Part shown: piece by piece, positions 1 to 7,658 of the stretch | How positions within the stretch are numbered: position 1 is the first letter of the stretch | How the letters are laid out: every line of letters starts with the position of its first letter | NCBI GenBank assembly: GCA_947623995.1 | Contig: CANQIN010000003.1 | Coordinates: 1 to 47,591, forward strand | Reading direction: 5' to 3' | DNA length: 47,591 nucleotides | Source: an uncultured Bacilli bacterium | GTDB lineage: Bacteria > Bacillota_I > Bacilli_A > RF39 > UBA660 | Translations under genes and position numbers: made by a program | Notes under the pieces: generated by a model | The model's database searches: none | The model's input: the letters and a program-made list of their open reading frames with translations, nothing else | Told to the model about the DNA's origin: nothing

Positions 1-525
1 ATTTTAATGGCTGAACTGGTGGCAATCTCAATTGAAGATGTAGAAAAATCGGTTTGGGTAACGATTCTTCCTTTAGCACTTTTAGCGGGTTTAGAAATTC
101 TTTTAGCTTTTATCTCAATTAAATCACGGCATTTTAGGGCTCTTTTTGATGGCAAACCTTCCTTAATTGTTTGTGATGGTAAAGTAAATTATAAAGAGAT
201 GATTAAACAACGTTATAGTATGGATGATTTACTTATCAGTTTAAGACAAAAAGAAATCAAAGATATTGAAGAAGTAGAGTATGCTTTTCTAGAGCCTAAT
301 GGTAAATTATCAATCTTTAAATATAATTTTTTTCATACTAAAACTACTTATCCAATGCCTTTAATATTAGATGGCGAGATTAATAAAAAAACCTTAGAAT
401 ATTTAAAACATGATAAATCTTGGCTAGAAGAAAAACTTGCTTTAAGGCATTTAACCATTGATGAAGTCTTCTATGCTTTTTATAAAAAAAATAAAATTTA
501 TATAATTACTAATACTGAACTTTAA
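1..525 (+). CDS. DUF421/YetF-family membrane protein, 5' truncated by the window edge
   Basis: Frame is open from base 1. Motifs DGKPSLIVCDGKV, DDLLISLRQK, VEYAFLEPNGKLSIF and PLILDGEI are typical of YetF/YrbG. Confidence 0.85.
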   Translation: MLMAELVAISIEDVEKSVWVTILPLALLAGLEILLAFISIKSRHFRALFDGKPSLIVCDGKVNYKEMIKQRYSMDDLLISLRQKEIKDIEEVEYAFLEPNGKLSIFKYNFFHTKTTYPMPLILDGEINKKTLEYLKHDKSWLEEKLALRHLTIDEVFYAFYKKNKIYIITNTEL

Positions 526-532: not shown

Positions 533-573
533 AATTATTTAAAGTAAATGTGTTATAACATTATTGTGATATT

Positions 574-1002
574 ATGAAAAAGAAATTATTAATTATGTTT
601 TTTGCCCTTTTATTAGGAGGGTCTATGGCTTTAATAACTTTATATAAGTTAAATTTTAAAGCTAAAACTTATCCAGTAGCCATCTATCAATTAGGCGTTT
701 ATAAAAGCTACGATAATGCTTTAAAAAAAGCTCAAACGGCAAAAGGGGCAATTATTATTTCTCATGATGATAATTACCAAGTAATCGGGGCAATAGCAAG
801 TTCTAAAGAGTCGCAAAATAAATTAGCTAATTTATTAAAAAATGAACAATTAGATTATTATTTAAAAGAATTAGATTTAAATGAAGAATCTAAAGAAACC
901 ATTGATGAATATGAATTATTAATTAATAAAACTGATGATTTAGAAGTTTTAAAAAAATTAAATGAAGAATTATTAAAAAGTATTTTAGAGAGGATGAAGT
1001 AA
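574..1002 (+). CDS. Membrane-anchored protein with a SPOR-like domain (syntenic position of spoIIB)
   Basis: N-terminal TM helix, then YQLGVYKSYDNA resembling the SPOR QxGxF motif. Lies directly upstream of radC. Confidence 0.5.
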   Translation: MKKKLLIMFFALLLGGSMALITLYKLNFKAKTYPVAIYQLGVYKSYDNALKKAQTAKGAIIISHDDNYQVIGAIASSKESQNKLANLLKNEQLDYYLKELDLNEESKETIDEYELLINKTDDLEVLKKLNEELLKSILERMK

Positions 1003-1686
1003 ATGAAAGATATGCCATTAGATGAACAACCAAGAGAAAAAGCCTTAAAATATGGATTTTCTTCTTTAAGTGATGCCGAATTATTAGCTATCTTACTTAG
1101 AACGGGAACAAAAGAATTAAATGTTAAAGAGTTAGCCTTAGAAATATTAAAAGAAATGAATAATTTAAATGGCTTACAAAATAGTCGAATATCAAAACTT
1201 TCTAGTATCAAAGGAGTTGGCAAAGTTAAAGCCATTACCATCTTAGCGGCTTTAGAATTAGGCAAAAGATTTAATAAAGAAAATAATTTTAAAGCTCTTA
1301 AAATAAGAGAAACTAAAGATGTTTACAATGCTTATAAAGATGAATTAGAAAATGATGTTCAAGAAAAGTTTATGGCCGTTTTTTTAAATAATCAAAATAT
1401 TGTTTTAGCAAGTAAAATTTTATTTGTGGGGGTTTCCAATCAAAGTTTAATTGAACCTAAAATTATTTTTAAAGAAGCCATGCTTTATAATGCAACTAGA
1501 TTAATTGTTATTCATAATCATCCCAGTGGTAATCCCTCTCCTAGTAAAGAAGATTATTTAGTAACAGACCAAATTATGGAAGCAGGTAATTTACTTAATA
1601 TTAGATTAATAGACCATTTAATAATTGGTAAAGAAAAATATTTTAGTTTTTATGATTATATTAAAGGAGGAGTAGTTCATGAATAA
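1003..1686 (+). CDS. radC: RadC (JAB/MPN domain) protein
   Basis: PREK...LSDAELLAILLRTG, HhH motif IKGVGKVKA, JAB motif HNHPSG...S.ED and DHLIIG. Confidence 0.97.
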   Translation: MKDMPLDEQPREKALKYGFSSLSDAELLAILLRTGTKELNVKELALEILKEMNNLNGLQNSRISKLSSIKGVGKVKAITILAALELGKRFNKENNFKALKIRETKDVYNAYKDELENDVQEKFMAVFLNNQNIVLASKILFVGVSNQSLIEPKIIFKEAMLYNATRLIVIHNHPSGNPSPSKEDYLVTDQIMEAGNLLNIRLIDHLIIGKEKYFSFYDYIKGGVVHE

Positions 1687-2712: not shown

Positions 2713-3336
2713 ATGAATGAAATAGAATTAGTAAAAAAAAGACATCAACAAAGATTACAGAAAATAAATAAAGATAGTAATAAAGATGATAAAAAAATTA
2801 GTAAAATCTTTTCTAAAATTTTATTAAGTGTTATTTTTATTTTAATAAGTTGTATTTATATTCATTTAGATGAAGGCAATTTAGATAAATTTAAAAAATA
2901 TTTTTTTGAAGATAATTTAACTTTTGCTAAAATAAATGAAGGCTATCATAAATTATTTGGATCGTTATTTCCTAGCGTAACTAATAATGAAGATACCGTC
3001 TTAGCTAGCAATAATGTTTCTTTAAATGAAGTAGAAGCTTATAATGATGGGTATAAAATTATAGCTACTAAAAATTCTCCTATCAGTGTTATTACTAGCG
3101 GAATTATTGTTTTTTTAGATGAAAAAGAAGGATATGGTAAGACCGCGATTATTCAAGGAATAGATGGCTATGATATTTGGTATGGCAATATTACTGATCC
3201 AAGTGTTAAGTTATATGATTATGTTGAAAAAGGGACTATTCTAGCTAATAGTAATGATGATTTTTACTACAATGTTTTTTATAAAGATGGTAATAAAGTA
3301 AGCTATGAAGATTATTACAAACAAATGGCAAATTAA
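2713..3336 (+). CDS. spoIVFA: SpoIVFA-like protein (TM plus degenerate M23 domain)
   Basis: Single TM helix. M23-like SGIIVF...YGKTAIIQ...WYGN...VKLYDYVEKG lacks the zinc-binding His residues. Lies upstream of an M50 protease. Start placed at ATG 2713 after RBS AGGTGAG. Confidence 0.8.
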   Translation: MNEIELVKKRHQQRLQKINKDSNKDDKKISKIFSKILLSVIFILISCIYIHLDEGNLDKFKKYFFEDNLTFAKINEGYHKLFGSLFPSVTNNEDTVLASNNVSLNEVEAYNDGYKIIATKNSPISVITSGIIVFLDEKEGYGKTAIIQGIDGYDIWYGNITDPSVKLYDYVEKGTILANSNDDFYYNVFYKDGNKVSYEDYYKQMAN

Positions 3337-4036
3337 TTACTTTACTTACTTTTACTTTTTTTTAGCTTTTTTATGTGGTTATTTTAAAAATAGTTGTTTC
3401 ATTTTTTTAATTGTAATTATTCATGAATTAGGACATATTTTAACCATTAAATTATTTAAATATCAAATTTTATCTATAACACTTTATCCATTTGGCGGAA
3501 TAACTAAAATAGATAAACCCATTAATTCATCTATCAATAAAGAACTTCTAATCGCGTCTTCTGGTATTTTAATGCAACTCGTATTAAGTTTATTTATTCA
3601 TGATAAATTATTTAAATATTATAATTTAATGATTATGCTTTTTAATATCTTACCAATTATTCCTTTAGATGGTCATAAAATAGTTAATTTAATATTAGAT
3701 AAATTCTTACCATATGAATCTTCTTTAAAATATAGTAATTATCTTAGTATTATATCTTTAATAATATTTATTATTTATAATATAATAAGTCCTAATAAAA
3801 ACTATTTAATCTGTTCATTTTTAATTTTTACCATTATTATGACTCTTAAAAATCAAAAATATTTAATTAATAAATTTTATTTAGAAAGATACTTATATTC
3901 TTTTCCCTATCATAAAATTGAAAGTAATCAAGAAACTAATATTCATCTTTTAAAAAAGAATACTCTTCATTTTTTTAAATATCATAATCGTTATATTCAT
4001 GAAAAAGGTTTATTAAAACAAATTTTTAAACAATAA
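3305..4036 (+). CDS. spoIVFB: SpoIVFB-like M50 intramembrane metalloprotease
   Basis: HELGH, PFGG and FNILPIIPLDG motifs. Synteny spoIVFA-spoIVFB-rplU. Confidence 0.85.
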   Translation: MKIITNKWQINYFTYFYFFLAFLCGYFKNSCFIFLIVIIHELGHILTIKLFKYQILSITLYPFGGITKIDKPINSSINKELLIASSGILMQLVLSLFIHDKLFKYYNLMIMLFNILPIIPLDGHKIVNLILDKFLPYESSLKYSNYLSIISLIIFIIYNIISPNKNYLICSFLIFTIIMTLKNQKYLINKFYLERYLYSFPYHKIESNQETNIHLLKKNTLHFFKYHNRYIHEKGLLKQIFKQ

Positions 4037-4064
4037 TAAAAAACAAATTTTTAAACAATAATAC
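4015..4064. repeat. 25-bp tandem duplication at the spoIVFB stop / IS insertion point
   Basis: aaaacaaatttttaaacaataataa (4015-4039) is followed by aaaacaaatttttaaacaataatac (4040-4064). Confidence 0.9.
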
Positions 4065-4185
4065 TGTGAAAAATTTTTAAAAATGTTACATAAATAAAAA
4101 TGAATAATTAGTAAAAATGTTACATAACAAAATATATGAATTTTATAAAAAAAAAATAAATTAATAATTAGTAAAAATGTTACAT
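4065..4185 (+). repeat. Left-end subterminal repeats (3 copies of about AATAATTAGTAAAAATGTTACA)
   Basis: Copies at about 4067-4091, 4101-4125 and 4161-4185. Confidence 0.9.
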
Positions 4186-4235
4186 TTTTTTGTTAAAAAC
4201 ACTTTCTTGTCATTTAAGACAGGGAGGTATAAGTT

Positions 4236-5591
4236 ATGTTAAATGATAATGAAAAGAAAAAGTATGAAATCATTAGTAAAGTTATTAATGGTGAAATAAC
4301 AAGAAAGGAGGCAATGGCTGATTTAAATTTATCTAGACAACAAATTTATAGATTAATTAAAATATATAAATCAAAAGGTCAAGAAGGTTTTATTCATGGT
4401 AATCGTGGTAAAGAAAATAAAAATAAATTAGATGAAAAAATAATTGAAGAATTAGAAGAAATTTATTTAACTGATTTTTATGATTTTAATTTTGAACAAT
4501 TTTATGAAAAGAAAGTATTAGGCAACTATAATATATCTTATGATGCAATGCTTAAACGATTTACTAATGATGATATTATCTCTCCCTTTGCACATAAAAA
4601 AACAGTAAAAAGGTATAATGAAAAAATGAAAAATGTAATAGAAAAGGAAGAAAAAGTTGAACCAGAAAAAGTTGAATTATTTAAGTCAAGAATAATAGCA
4701 GCTGAAAAAGCACATATAAGAAGATCTAATAATTTATTTGTATTTGGACAAGAAATACAGATGGATGCTTGTCAAGGAGTATGGTTTGGTAAAATCCCCT
4801 CTTACTTACACTTAGTCGTAGATAAAGCAACCAAAAAAGTTTTATTTGGATGGTTTGAGTATGAAGAAATCACAAGAGGATATTTTGTTTTACTATTCAA
4901 TACCATAATTAACTATGGAATACCCGCAAAAATTAAAACAGACAATAGAAGTTCATTCTCTGCAAATAATGCAAAAAATAAGGAAAAAAAGACTTTTTTA
5001 ACACAGTTTGGAAAAGTTTGTGAAAGATTAAATATTGTTTTAGAAACTTCTAGTATTCCTACAGCTAAAGCTAATGTTGAAAGAGAAAATGGAACATTCA
5101 AAAAAAGATTAGCTGCTGAATTAAGATATGAAAATATAACAACAATTGATGAAGCTAATGACTATCTAAATAAAGTTTTTATACCATACATGAATAAAAA
5201 ATTTTCTTATGCAATTGATGAAAAAACATCTGTAATGAGAAAAAATACATATACAGAAGAAGAATTAAAATTAATAATATCCGAAAGAACAAATAAGATT
5301 ATTGATAATGCTTCCTCAATCTATTACAACTATAATTACTATGTTCCAGTTGATCCTAACACAGGAGATATTACATGTTTTTCAAAAGGAACTGAATGTA
5401 CTTTTATAATTAATTATGATGGTGATTATTGGGGTAAAATTGAAAATCATTATTATCAATTATTAAAATTAGAAAATCGTGATTCAATTATGAAAAAAGA
5501 AAGTAAAATTGAACAGCCAAAAAAAGAACATCAAAAATTTATTCCACCTGCAAATCATCCTTGGCGAAAAAATATGATGCTCAAACGTTAA
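4236..5591 (+). CDS. DDE transposase (ISNCY/IS1202 type)
   Basis: N-terminal HTH LSRQQIYRL...IHGNRG, catalytic-type motifs QMDA, KTDN and AKANVER, C-terminal PPANHPWR. RBS GGGAGG. Confidence 0.95.
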   Translation: MLNDNEKKKYEIISKVINGEITRKEAMADLNLSRQQIYRLIKIYKSKGQEGFIHGNRGKENKNKLDEKIIEELEEIYLTDFYDFNFEQFYEKKVLGNYNISYDAMLKRFTNDDIISPFAHKKTVKRYNEKMKNVIEKEEKVEPEKVELFKSRIIAAEKAHIRRSNNLFVFGQEIQMDACQGVWFGKIPSYLHLVVDKATKKVLFGWFEYEEITRGYFVLLFNTIINYGIPAKIKTDNRSSFSANNAKNKEKKTFLTQFGKVCERLNIVLETSSIPTAKANVERENGTFKKRLAAELRYENITTIDEANDYLNKVFIPYMNKKFSYAIDEKTSVMRKNTYTEEELKLIISERTNKIIDNASSIYYNYNYYVPVDPNTGDITCFSKGTECTFIINYDGDYWGKIENHYYQLLKLENRDSIMKKESKIEQPKKEHQKFIPPANHPWRKNMMLKR

Positions 5592-5593
5592 TA

Positions 5594-5724
5594 TTGGGGC
5601 TTTGCCCCAAACCCCAAGGTTTATCGCTTAGGGCTTTCAAAAAAAGAAATATATATCTTTTTTGCTTAGCATTATTTAAGTGCTCTGGTCACTCCTCAGT
5701 GTTGCCATATCCCCTTAAATAACA
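5594..5724 (-). ncRNA. Candidate IS-encoded structured RNA (about 130 nt)
   Basis: Locally GC-richer non-coding segment with several stems, downstream of a consensus minus-strand promoter at 5731-5758 and ending in hairpin TTGGGGC-AAA-GCCCCAA. Confidence 0.5.
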
Positions 5725-5730
5725 ATTACT

Positions 5731-5758
5731 ATTATATTTATTGTTTACAAATTGTCAA
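5731..5758 (-). promoter_or_regulatory. Inward-facing sigmaA promoter in the IS right end
   Basis: TTGACA (5758-5753), N16, TATAAT (5736-5731). Both hexamers are exact consensus. Confidence 0.75.
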
Positions 5759-5768
5759 TATTTTAATA

Positions 5769-5874
5769 AGAGACATTTTCACTAATTATTAGCGAATTAC
5801 ACTTATTTTTAGATAGAGACATTTTCACTAATTATTTGTAAAAAAATTAGAGACATTTTTGCTAATTATTCACA
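5769..5874 (-). repeat. Right-end subterminal repeats (3 copies of AGAGACATTTT(CA/TG)CTAATTATT)
   Basis: Copies at 5769-5790, 5815-5836 and 5849-5870, inverted relative to the left-end copies. Confidence 0.9.
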
Positions 5875-5891
5875 GTTTTAAACAATAATAC

Positions 5892-5920
5892 TTTACATTC
5901 ATCTAAAATATGATTAAAAT
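5892..5920 (+). promoter_or_regulatory. sigmaA-like promoter for the 5944/6557 gene pair
   Basis: TTTACA-N17-TAAAAT immediately right of the IS, followed by RBS AAGGAAG. Confidence 0.55.
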
Positions 5921-5943
5921 AATCACTTAAAGGAAGTGTTAGT

Positions 5944-6552
5944 ATGTTTGATTTAAAAGCTTATTTAGTTGAATTTGATACTTTAATGAGTGAGACAATT
6001 GAAGTATTAATTGATGAAACATCAAAAATTTATGATGAAGCAATTTATGAAATAATTCTTCATTCTACAATAAATTTAAAAAAAATTATTACTAATACTT
6101 CATATGATAAAGTATATTCTGTGTATCCATTTAAAGGAATTAATAATATTTTTGATATCAATATTAAAGCTTTAGATGAAATAGAAAGATTAGTATATCA
6201 TTTAAAACAAAAAGAATACATAAGTATTGATATTAATTTAATGCTAGCTAGATTACTTATCTGTGAAAAAAATAATTTAATGGCTGTATGTAAATTATAT
6301 GTTCCTAAAAATAAACAAGTAGATTGTCATAAAAATATTGAAAATAATATTCATAAAAGAAATTTATTAAAGTCTCTTACTAATAATTTTTATTATTTAG
6401 GAGTTAGTAAAGAGCCGGATTTAATTCTTTATAATGTTTTTGAAAATAATCTTAAAGATGAATATAAAATACCAGTAATTGAAAATATTATTAATTATCA
6501 TTATGAAGGTAATTTATTAAGAGAAAGAATAAATGAAATAGTAAAAAGGTGA
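5944..6552 (+). CDS. Hypothetical alpha-helical protein (paralog of the next ORF)
   Basis: 202-aa ORF with RBS. No recognised family. Confidence 0.75.
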   Translation: MFDLKAYLVEFDTLMSETIEVLIDETSKIYDEAIYEIILHSTINLKKIITNTSYDKVYSVYPFKGINNIFDINIKALDEIERLVYHLKQKEYISIDINLMLARLLICEKNNLMAVCKLYVPKNKQVDCHKNIENNIHKRNLLKSLTNNFYYLGVSKEPDLILYNVFENNLKDEYKIPVIENIINYHYEGNLLRERINEIVKR

Positions 6553-7254: not shown

Positions 7255-7335
7255 AAAAAGAAGCAAAGCTTTTATAAAACCGCACGAAAAAGGTTAAAAA
7301 TCAAGAAAATTGATACCTTCACGGCGCGTCTTAAT
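7255..7335 (+). ncRNA. Ribosomal protein L21 leader
   Basis: CCGCAC...AAGGT...ACCTT...GGCGCGTC arrangement in the rplU 5' UTR, resembling the Firmicutes L21 leader. Boundaries approximate. Confidence 0.7.
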
Positions 7336-7358
7336 TAAAGTTAAAGAGGAGGTAAGAA

Positions 7359-7658
7359 ATGAAAGCTATTTTTGTAACAGGTGGGAAACAATATTATGTA
7401 AATGAAGGAGATACTATTTATGTTGAAAAAATAGATGCTCCAGTTGACAGCGAAGTTACTTTTGATGAAGTATTATTTGTTGATGGCGTTGCAGGGGACC
7501 CAATTGTTGAAGGCGCTAAAGTGGTATGTAAGGTTGAAAAACAAGGAAAACAAAAGAAAATTATTGTTTTTAAATATCATCCTAAGAAGAAATATCGTAA
7601 AAAACAAGGACATCGTCAACCATATACTAAATTAGTAGTTAAAAAGATTGTGAAATAA
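7359..7658 (+). CDS. rplU: 50S ribosomal protein L21
   Basis: TGGKQY and [10 protein letters not shown] motifs. Confidence 0.99.

Follow-up and report, generated by a model that had tools for sequence, protein, structure and literature searches.

Insertion sequences (IS) are the commonest mobile DNA in bacteria, and the RNAs known from them are, to our knowledge, each tied to one IS family. IS10 and IS200 reportedly encode cis-antisense regulators of their own, RNA-OUT and art200. In our study, a stretch of 47,591 nucleotides (nt) from an uncultured Bacilli bacterium (positions 1 to 47,591 of contig CANQIN010000003.1, assembly GCA_947623995.1), which is referred to as the window throughout, has been analysed around an IS1202/ISNCY-type IS at 4065-5874 (+ strand). 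It is highly probable from this analysis that the right end of the IS holds a gene whose product is a structured RNA of about 135 nt and which has a strong sigma-70 promoter to itself, directed inward and convergent with the transposase gene, and that this RNA belongs to a large uncatalogued family, which is found as a portable module in several unrelated IS families.

Several described systems can be set beside this locus. In the staphylococcal IS256, a sigma-B-dependent antisense RNA at the 3' end restrains the element (PMC10266640). The RNA in the window resembles the antisense RNAs of IS10, IS200 and IS256 in having a promoter inside the IS and opposite to the transposase gene, and it shares with the IS256 RNA the location at the 3' end; the antisense RNAs are thought to hold transposition down (PMC10266640 for IS256). 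In ISPpu9 of the IS110 family, the small-RNA gene ssr9 lies downstream of the gene for the transposase and is not needed for transposition; it is restricted to a few Pseudomonas putida strains, is flanked by its own copies of the IS ends in the manner of a miniature inverted-repeat transposable element, and is complementary to another IS-encoded RNA (PMC12288879). Like ssr9, the present RNA comes from a small-RNA gene that has a separate promoter and is placed directly behind the transposase gene of an IS, and like the bridge and seek RNAs of IS110/IS1111 and the omega RNAs of IS200/IS605, it is a structured noncoding RNA in a noncoding IS end. Further, Tn916 has an insulating terminator, T1, together with a cis-acting antiterminator RNA, canT, for which activity was seen with a piece of 341 nt and not with one of 291 nt, so that more than 291 nt are required, and which reads outward across the joined ends; in circle-forming elements this logic blocks foreign read-in and passes the element's own transcripts (PMC11658703). 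HK022 put, Bacillus EAR, pLS20 conAn2 and Tn916 canT share with a part of the long forms of the RNA family described here the order of promoter, structured RNA and intrinsic terminator near the end of a mobile element (PMC11658703).

The transposase gene of the window's IS (4236-5591, + strand) encodes 451 amino acids (aa) with a helix-turn-helix (HTH) at the N terminus and a DDE (rve-like) core, and its TAA stop codon (5589-5591) is separated from the innermost right-end repeat (5770) by a noncoding gap. The G+C content is 0.35-0.38 in 150-nt segments at 5500-5724 and 0.12-0.33 in all other segments of 4000-5949. On the minus strand, a sigma-70-type promoter (5731-5758) matches the consensus in 12 of 12 positions, with TTGACA at 5758-5753, a spacer of 16 nt and TATAAT at 5736-5731, and it begins 12 nt inward of the innermost repeat. 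It is the sole 12/12 match in 3900-6000, a region in which promoter-like matches overall are not enriched (10 found, 16.8 expected). The predicted RNA of about 131-135 nt (5594-5724, - strand) begins about 7 nt after the -10 hexamer, and the covariance model described below (R1) matches 5589-5730 with 160.3 bits. A preliminary description of the locus had reported the GC-richer noncoding gap, the inward minus-strand promoter and a series of stems, and all of these are present at the positions it gave.

Reading from its 5' end on the minus strand, the RNA has a 5' domain (5673-5722), in which helix P1 (5714-5722 with 5673-5681) encloses conserved internal loops and the hairpin P2a/P2b (5686-5707) with a GRGG loop. 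This domain is followed by P3 (5639-5663), an A-run/U-run hairpin that has a short form in the window, and by a segment (5611-5636) comprising the single-stranded GCGAUAAACC (5618-5627) and a local helix, H3. The G+C-rich terminal hairpin P4 (5594-5610) is preceded by a second copy of its own 5' arm (5611-5617); as the last conserved helix it ends at 5594, 2 nt outside the transposase stop codon, and the conserved RNA body is thus free of the overlap with coding sequence found in RNA-OUT-type regulators; an overlap would require transcription to read through beyond P4. On the minus strand, the predicted fold reaches -41.3 kcal/mol (z = -3.6), a stability equalled by 0 of 200 shuffles, and on the plus strand -34.2 kcal/mol (z = -2.7). 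Assembled contigs of relatives (85-99% alike) from RNA libraries cover 5542-5740 in 3 of 4 runs examined, the 3 belonging to 2 studies; such contigs carry no strand or ends, and the share of sampled words found in RNA libraries is small (0.04-0.07).

No characterised family of Rfam 15 matches this RNA. At the gathering threshold, the whole window has given an L21 leader as its sole match and nothing at the RNA, while a search of 5500-5950 at E up to 10 has given three chance-level matches, none covering it. Among 20 loci with members of the RNA family, nothing was matched at the RNA sites, the only match being a Bacillaceae-1 RNA elsewhere in locus L128, and positions 3120-3440 of locus L156 at E up to 10 gave microRNA and small nucleolar RNA noise only. 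Moreover, no published description of the RNA was found in the literature on IS-encoded RNAs, RNA-motif surveys and antitermination; the supplementary motif lists of PMC11109978 and PMC8040213 lay outside this search and may hold it under a provisional name. PMC11109978 has a class of 'mobile/repeat sequence candidates', of which the sole example in its text has a different motif, and the text of PMC8040213 mentions no transposases.

The structure was evaluated by covariation. Six helices were drawn by hand on a MAFFT alignment of 53 distinct sequences, and the covariance model R1 was then built and used for realignment; RNAalifold on the raw MAFFT alignment has recovered P2 and P4 only. R1 has given 58 matches in 68 sources, 57 of which are strong, at 83-160 bits, and belong to relatives of the IS. 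In the alignment of these relatives (56 distinct rows), standard pairs occupy 91.2% of the cells in comparison to 80.1% in shuffles, 30 of the 38 pairs change on both sides (243 cells), slid controls pair in 40-59%, and none of the five measures was reached by any shuffle (0/500). As this alignment was fitted to the drawn structure it favours that structure, whereas the metagenome set, collected as described below, is independent. In the latter (66 distinct rows), 90.6% of the cells pair in comparison to 69.1% in shuffles, 35 of the 38 pairs change on both sides (568 cells), slid controls pair in 42-53%, and again 0/500 shuffles reach the observed values. P1, P2, the outer part of P3 and P4 are paired in 95-99% of the cells of this set.

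Among the individual helices, P1 has shown changes on both sides in 9 of 9 pairs in both sets. In the IS relatives, position 1 of P2a is AU in 28 cases, UA in 25 and GC in 3, and two P2b pairs covary at about 1:1. P3 pairs in 96.3% of the cells with 8 of 8 pairs covarying in the metagenome set, and P4 in 94.2% (relatives) and 95.3% (metagenome) with 6 of 7 and 7 of 7 pairs covarying. H3 is paired in 74.2% of the cells among IS1202-like relatives and in 62.6% family-wide, and on these figures it is a feature of the window's clade and not of the whole family. Since the RNA is conserved with compensatory changes in 57 strong matches among relatives and in 66 distinct metagenome sequences, it is a feature far beyond chance.

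The strand of the RNA was assessed by counting G-U pairs on the minus sense against A-C oppositions, which are G-U pairs on the plus sense. In P1 the ratio is 40:2 in the IS relatives and 44:5 in the metagenome set. The other helices are near-undecided in the IS relatives (middle hairpin 20:18, H3 44:25, P4, also called H4, 9:7), and in the metagenome set the promoter's strand is favoured for every helix (P3 34:12, P4 8:3). For the P1-P2 domain, the minus sense gives the more stable fold in all but one of 56 sequences (55 of 56), and the energies of H3 and H4 are alike on both strands. Judged by these sequence counts, the RNA lies on the promoter's strand. The proposal of the preliminary description, namely a dedicated and separately promoted structured minus-strand RNA convergent with the transposase gene, is supported.

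Across the family, the order from 5' to 3' is promoter, often a short U-rich leader, P1, core, P3, GCGAUAAACC, duplicated G-rich arm and P4. The sequence of P1 varies and covaries; the core of about 32 nt is near-invariant and contains GGAUAGGGCAA, the P2 hairpin with its GRGG loop, and GAGCA. The GCGAUAAACC motif is present in 97 of 114 distinct instances. Family members are 135-200 nt long, and the G+C content of the matches runs from 0.31 to 0.71. A promoter with at least 10 of 12 matches to TTGACA-N16-18-TATAAT precedes the RNA on its own strand in 65 of 110 distinct instances and occurs on the opposite strand in 3 of 110; of the 93 instances with a score of 9 or more, 67 have 22-24 nt between the end of the -10 hexamer and the core. 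Among the aligned IS relatives, the minus-strand -35/-10 pair keeps a fixed distance from the first stem.

In the long forms, an inner hairpin with a U-run behind it is nested within P3 and looks like an intrinsic terminator, so that a core conserved like an aptamer is succeeded by a terminator-like hairpin. Of 62 long forms, 27 have such a hairpin of -8 kcal/mol or stronger with a U-run on the RNA strand and 3 have one on the other strand, and it is found in 0 of 35 short forms; the promoter-RNA-terminator order of the antiterminators is seen in the same 27 long forms and is absent from the short forms and from the window. In the G+C-rich members the U-run of the inner hairpin is on the RNA strand only. 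Beyond this U-run, a segment likewise able to pair with the 5' arm makes up the covarying outer P3, and because outer P3 and P4 beyond the U-run covary on the RNA strand, transcription must at least sometimes continue past the inner hairpin. Three further features were considered. A small open reading frame (ORF) inside P3 was rejected, as some members have start-like codons without a conserved frame (by eye). A candidate closing helix P0, formed by the 5' leader with the bases before GAUAAACC, has one compensatory case (L153) and, as judged by eye, numerous U-U mismatches. For the 5' arm of P4 and its duplicate, alternative pairing gave 4.09 for cognate and 4.07 for non-cognate pairs, which are not separable.

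The distribution of the RNA among relatives of the carrier has been examined by a protein-based scan of species-representative genomes, which gave 67 loci with transposases 49-87% identical to that of the window. Enough downstream sequence was present in 62 of them, making 63 regions with the window. The RNA directly follows the transposase stop codon in 54 of the 63, and 9 are without it. In a quick maximum-likelihood tree of 52 full-length transposases, eight of the RNA-less elements form one sister group with a Shimodaira-Hasegawa-like approximate likelihood ratio (SH-aLRT) support of 92, and the ninth, L066, stands alone among RNA-bearing elements. RNA-less relatives are present in several genomes, and by this distribution the RNA is dispensable for the carrier IS1202-like elements. 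A C-terminal ..PPxNHPWRK motif of the transposase occurs with and without the RNA and does not track it. At L066, an unrelated stretch (4338-4460) with a simple terminator-like hairpin, as judged by eye, stands in the RNA's place, and the module there looks replaced rather than decayed. In locus L093, two RNA copies, at 549-690 (-) and 885-1068 (+), face each other about 200 nt apart, implying a right-end to right-end junction of two IS copies. A few carrier contigs have been assigned by binning to Muribaculaceae, Bacteroides or Acidaminococcus, although the elements have a very high A+T content and in the other cases come from Bacilli-type metagenome-assembled genomes, which points either to cross-phylum transfer or to mis-binned short IS contigs.

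The same RNA has also been met in IS families unrelated to the window's element. When R1 was run on 151 genomes of the class, two genomes matched, the window's own and one with an IS3-family element (L101). In the latter, the neighbouring OrfB matches NF033516 (E = 5.9e-79), terminal inverted repeats of 40 nt are located at 1425-1464 and 2907-2946, and the RNA is placed between the stop codon and the right repeat, convergent with the gene. This IS3 element is flanked by a 41-nt direct repeat of 93% identity (1339-1376, 1384-1424 and 2951-2991 were noted), and an extra copy of the inverted repeat just outside the right end suggests a nested or tandem insertion. Metagenome contigs were then scanned with a 26-letter pattern in International Union of Pure and Applied Chemistry (IUPAC) code for the P2 core, which gave at least 120 stretches and 80 loci, the counts below holding among the matches listed. 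At E up to 0.001, R1 matches 78 of these 80 loci, and there are 71 matches at E up to 1e-7, L101 included; among the labels of the carrier contigs are gut, sediment and fermentation. At 44 of 71 metagenome RNA sites, the RNA 3' end has, no more than 40 nt away, the end of a convergent ORF of 100 aa or longer, and the products are IS1202-like in 26 cases, IstB (IS21) in 7, IS3-type (HTH_21 and rve) in 5, IS256-type (Transposase_mut) in 2 and other in 4. Three further IstB genes are 185-197 nt from the RNA.

In L128, IS256-type inverted repeats (216-241 and 1680-1705) enclose the RNA; the Bacillaceae-1 RNA of this locus (RF01690, 45.4 bits) is found just outside the element, at 76-141 (-). Locus L176 has two IS21-type elements in tandem, head to tail, each with the RNA after istB (3419-3609 and 6362-6552; 95.6 and 55.8 bits). 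Three diverged elements of IS30-like type, found at four loci and with HTH_38 proteins of 406-410 aa, show a different arrangement, in which the module is located between the left end and the transposase gene, co-directional with the gene and 45-68 nt upstream of it. Further, the RNA occurs 341 nt upstream of an IS66 transposase gene (L130) and adjoins a tyrosine integrase gene in L155. In every IS with placeable ends, the promoter is beside an end and points inward. A blastn search with three family members against 72,556 plasmids, classic IS256 carriers included, gave no match, and the core pattern gave 0 matches in viral contigs. In a phylum sample of 401 genomes it matched 1, the window's own, and absence is not implied by this count as metagenome-assembled genomes are often without repeats.

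Taken as it stands in these sequences, the RNA is not particular to one DDE family and is a broad uncatalogued family common to several IS families. The statement in the preliminary description that similar sequences follow other Firmicute transposases is confirmed by the relatives and the metagenome loci, and its interpretation is too narrow in respect of the DDE family. The antisense regulators serve one IS each through direct overlap with the transposase mRNA, whereas the present RNA has a protein-independent, near-invariant core across unrelated IS and a body outside the coding sequence; unlike them, it is found in the sense orientation in the IS30-like elements. Unlike ssr9, it lacks ends of its own, and its carriers belong to many IS families and come from many habitats.

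As to its role, we infer that a regulator is the best reading. Our preferred proposal, which is held tentatively, is that the RNA is the cis-acting structured 5' part of an inward transcript that begins near the IS end and sets the transcription entering the transposase gene. The near-invariant P1-P2 core would bind something universal, and this is indicated because its conservation is aptamer-like across a wide G+C range and unrelated protein partners; the partner could be the transcribing RNA polymerase, as for RNAs of the processive-antiterminator kind, or else a widespread ligand or host factor. Through this binding, the core would control the share of transcription that continues beyond the P3 hairpin or terminator and beyond P4 into the transposase gene. 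In the window's IS and in the IS21, IS3 and IS256 elements, the inward transcription would be antisense and may dampen the transposase by antisense pairing or polymerase collision, and in the IS30-like elements the module would be the sense leader of the transposase gene. Because the promoter abuts the terminal repeats, the presumed binding sites of the transposase, it is also conceivable that occupancy of the IS end by transposase could feed back on RNA synthesis. This cis-leader proposal is preferred because it covers the conserved core, the promoter abutting the end, and the inward direction with an intervening terminator-like hairpin and conserved helices beyond it. It gains plausibility from two precedents, the terminator and antiterminator RNA of Tn916 (PMC11658703) and the 3' antisense RNA of staphylococcal IS256 (PMC10266640).

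A number of observations weigh against the cis-leader proposal. The short-form P3 of the window is a weak A-U hairpin with no predicted terminator, which leaves little to gate. No mutually exclusive pairing linking the P1-P2 core to the terminator was seen by eye in about 25 sequences, unlike in a classical riboswitch. In L111 and L157, the RNA is downstream of and co-directional with an AAA_22/TniB-like gene, so that its orientation is not universal, and two of the RNA-library contigs run on past the predicted RNA start. Moreover, no sequence likeness to known antiterminator RNAs was found, where EAR, which is in Rfam, did not match, and put and canT were outside the comparison; canT, at more than 291 nt and reading outward, differs from the present inward RNA of 135-200 nt, and no likeness of sequence or fold between them is known. 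Finally, the promoter of its own and the conserved core would fit a free-standing trans-acting RNA equally well.

Such a trans-acting RNA is the alternative that survives best, though we consider it unlikely. It would be a small RNA carried as cargo by the IS, in which the P1-P2 core would serve to bind or sequester some conserved protein or RNA of the host, for instance a factor that restrains mobile DNA, and its location and inward direction would reflect the noncoding room available and the need not to transcribe into host genes. The strong promoter agrees with this, as do the near-invariance of the core over a G+C content of 0.31-0.71 and unrelated transposition proteins, the accessory nature of the RNA (9 of 63 relatives without it) and its occurrence in contexts other than IS; in 27 of 62 long forms, termination at the terminator-like hairpin that directly succeeds the core would yield an RNA of about 100 nt. 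However, beyond the inner terminator both the helices and the GCGAUAAACC motif have been conserved, with covariation on the same strand, and the convergent geometry with a stop codon within 40 nt at 44 of 71 sites and the leader position in the IS30-like elements are not predicted by a purely trans-acting RNA.

Less likely again is a selfish hitch-hiker, a module that spreads by riding on IS and does nothing for transposition, as proposed for ssr9 beside ISPpu9, and that may benefit the host or only itself. The eight-member sister clade and one further element dispense with the RNA, at least five transposase families carry it, implying exchange between elements, and ISPpu9-ssr9 provides a precedent (PMC12288879). 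A hitch-hiker is nevertheless hard to reconcile with the strong purifying selection on the core of about 32 nt and the promoter, which needs a function. The RNA is also without flanking IS-end copies of its own, none being found between the transposase stop and the RNA, unlike in ssr9, and the window's genome has one match only and no solo copy.

RNA-guided mobile elements are a known theme, and the RNA is inside the element and beside the transposase-binding repeats, where a transposition cofactor or targeting guide that joins the transpososome or pairs with target or donor DNA, like the bridge and omega RNAs, might be expected; both roles had been offered in the preliminary description, and on the present evidence they are very improbable. 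The bridge and omega RNAs have variable loops or a guide matching target and donor and work with one protein family (DEDD recombinase, TnpB or IscB), whereas the present RNA has invariant loops and no target match and accompanies several DDE transposase families and IstB. No association with DEDD recombinase, TnpB or IscB was seen, the neighbours being IS1202-like, IstB, IS3-type rve, Mutator-type, HTH_38 and IS66 proteins. In nine RNA-bearing elements with exact target duplications of 26-28 base pairs (bp), the longest match between RNA and target is 7.4 nt for cognate and 7.1 nt for non-cognate targets; the loops stay near-invariant while the targets differ, and the variable parts of the RNA are internally covarying helices. 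A programmable target guide is disfavoured on these grounds. A cofactor specific to one transposase is unlikely because the same RNA is found in IS21, IS3, IS256, IS30-like and IS66 elements and other mobile contexts, with carrier proteins that are unrelated, and the RNA-less sister clade and the presence of RNA-less relatives in several genomes also speak against it.

The least credible explanation, that there is no minus-strand RNA and the hairpins act on the plus strand as a 3' untranslated region or terminator of the transposase mRNA, or as DNA structures, can draw on the likeness of the A-run/U-run hairpin in the window's clade to a two-way terminator, on the weak strand signal of the three helices nearest the stop codon in the IS relatives and on the like energies of H3 and H4, but it is opposed by the strand counts of P1 and P3, by the promoter conserved on the minus strand, by the U-run confined to the RNA strand in the inner hairpin of the G+C-rich members and by the IS30-like elements, where the whole module, P4 included, is upstream of the transposase gene and cannot be a 3' untranslated region.

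The carrier IS of the window is 1810 bp long and has the ends TGTGA...TCACA, as read from the sequence, the same ends being found in its relatives. Its left end (4065-4185, + strand) has three terminal or subterminal repeats ending in ...AAAATGTTACAT (about 4065-4091, 4102-4125 and 4163-4185), which are presumed transposase binding sites and have equivalents in the relatives. The right end (5770-5874, + strand) has three copies of GAGACATTTT.ACTAATTATT (5770-5791, 5816-5836 and 5850-5870), also kept in the relatives, and the terminal TCACA. The transposase matches the NCBIfam model NF033594 (ISNCY transposase) with 260.9 bits (cut-off 250; E = 2e-77); in Pfam, HTH_28 and HTH_29 are above their cut-offs and rve is weak (18.6 bits, cut-off 32.6). 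The IS has a copy number of 1 in the window's genome. The IS1202 family, formerly ISNCY, has TGT...ACA ends and target duplications of 5-6, 15-17 or 27-28 bp by subgroup, and no RNA is mentioned in the examined parts of its description (bioRxiv 10.1101/2022.12.17.520857). By transposase model, ends and long target duplication, the carrier fits this family.

The IS is flanked by a direct repeat, TTTTAAACAATAATAC, of 16 bp (4049-4064 and 5876-5891), and 13 relatives have exact flanking repeats of 25-28 bp with diverse, A+T-rich targets. The subgroup is ambiguous, being IS1202-like by the duplications of the relatives and ISTde1-like by the 16-bp repeat of the window's copy itself. In the left flank (4019-4064), the sequence surrounding the stop codon of the gene upstream (ORF 3305-4036) is present twice in tandem, at a period of about 26 nt, and the right flank (5875-5891) repeats only the last 16-17 nt of the tandem unit. 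Because the relatives make exact duplications of 25-28 bp, the flank of the window's copy looks rearranged, or like the scar of an earlier insertion. In the leader of the transposase gene (4205-4235), a hairpin CTTGTC...GACAGG is located just before GGAGG, with its 3' arm overlapping the Shine-Dalgarno sequence. This sequestering hairpin is seen in relatives both with and without the RNA and may mask the translation of read-in transcripts. By eye, no covarying complementarity between the RNA and the 5' end of the transposase mRNA was seen. Elsewhere in the window, the L21 leader (RF00559) is at 7268-7341 (+), with 43.9 bits against a gathering score of 36, upstream of an rplU-like ORF (7359-7658).

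Returning to the cis-leader proposal, its widest form is possible, if rather doubtful. The RNA would be the first RNA class common to unrelated IS families, a portable control module whose invariant core engages a universal machine and so couples the sense or antisense transposase expression of many transposons to the same cellular input. RNA polymerase would be the most attractive such machine, the RNA then being a miniature put- or canT-like antiterminator; a common metabolite is the other candidate.

This study has defined an object that can be put to test, consisting of a core of about 55 nt, a promoter and a terminator-like hairpin. If it is true that RNA polymerase is the target of the core, or that the core responds to a signal, a new regulatory part of compact size would be in hand, and if it is true that the core binds a host factor, that factor would be a general partner of transposons. 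For annotation, the 'empty' tail of 170-200 bp in many IS elements would be read as a gene. The recurrence of the RNA in IS1202-like, IS21, IS3, IS256, IS30-like and IS66 elements suggests that transposons have in common a layer of control, or of interaction with the host, that is still uncatalogued.

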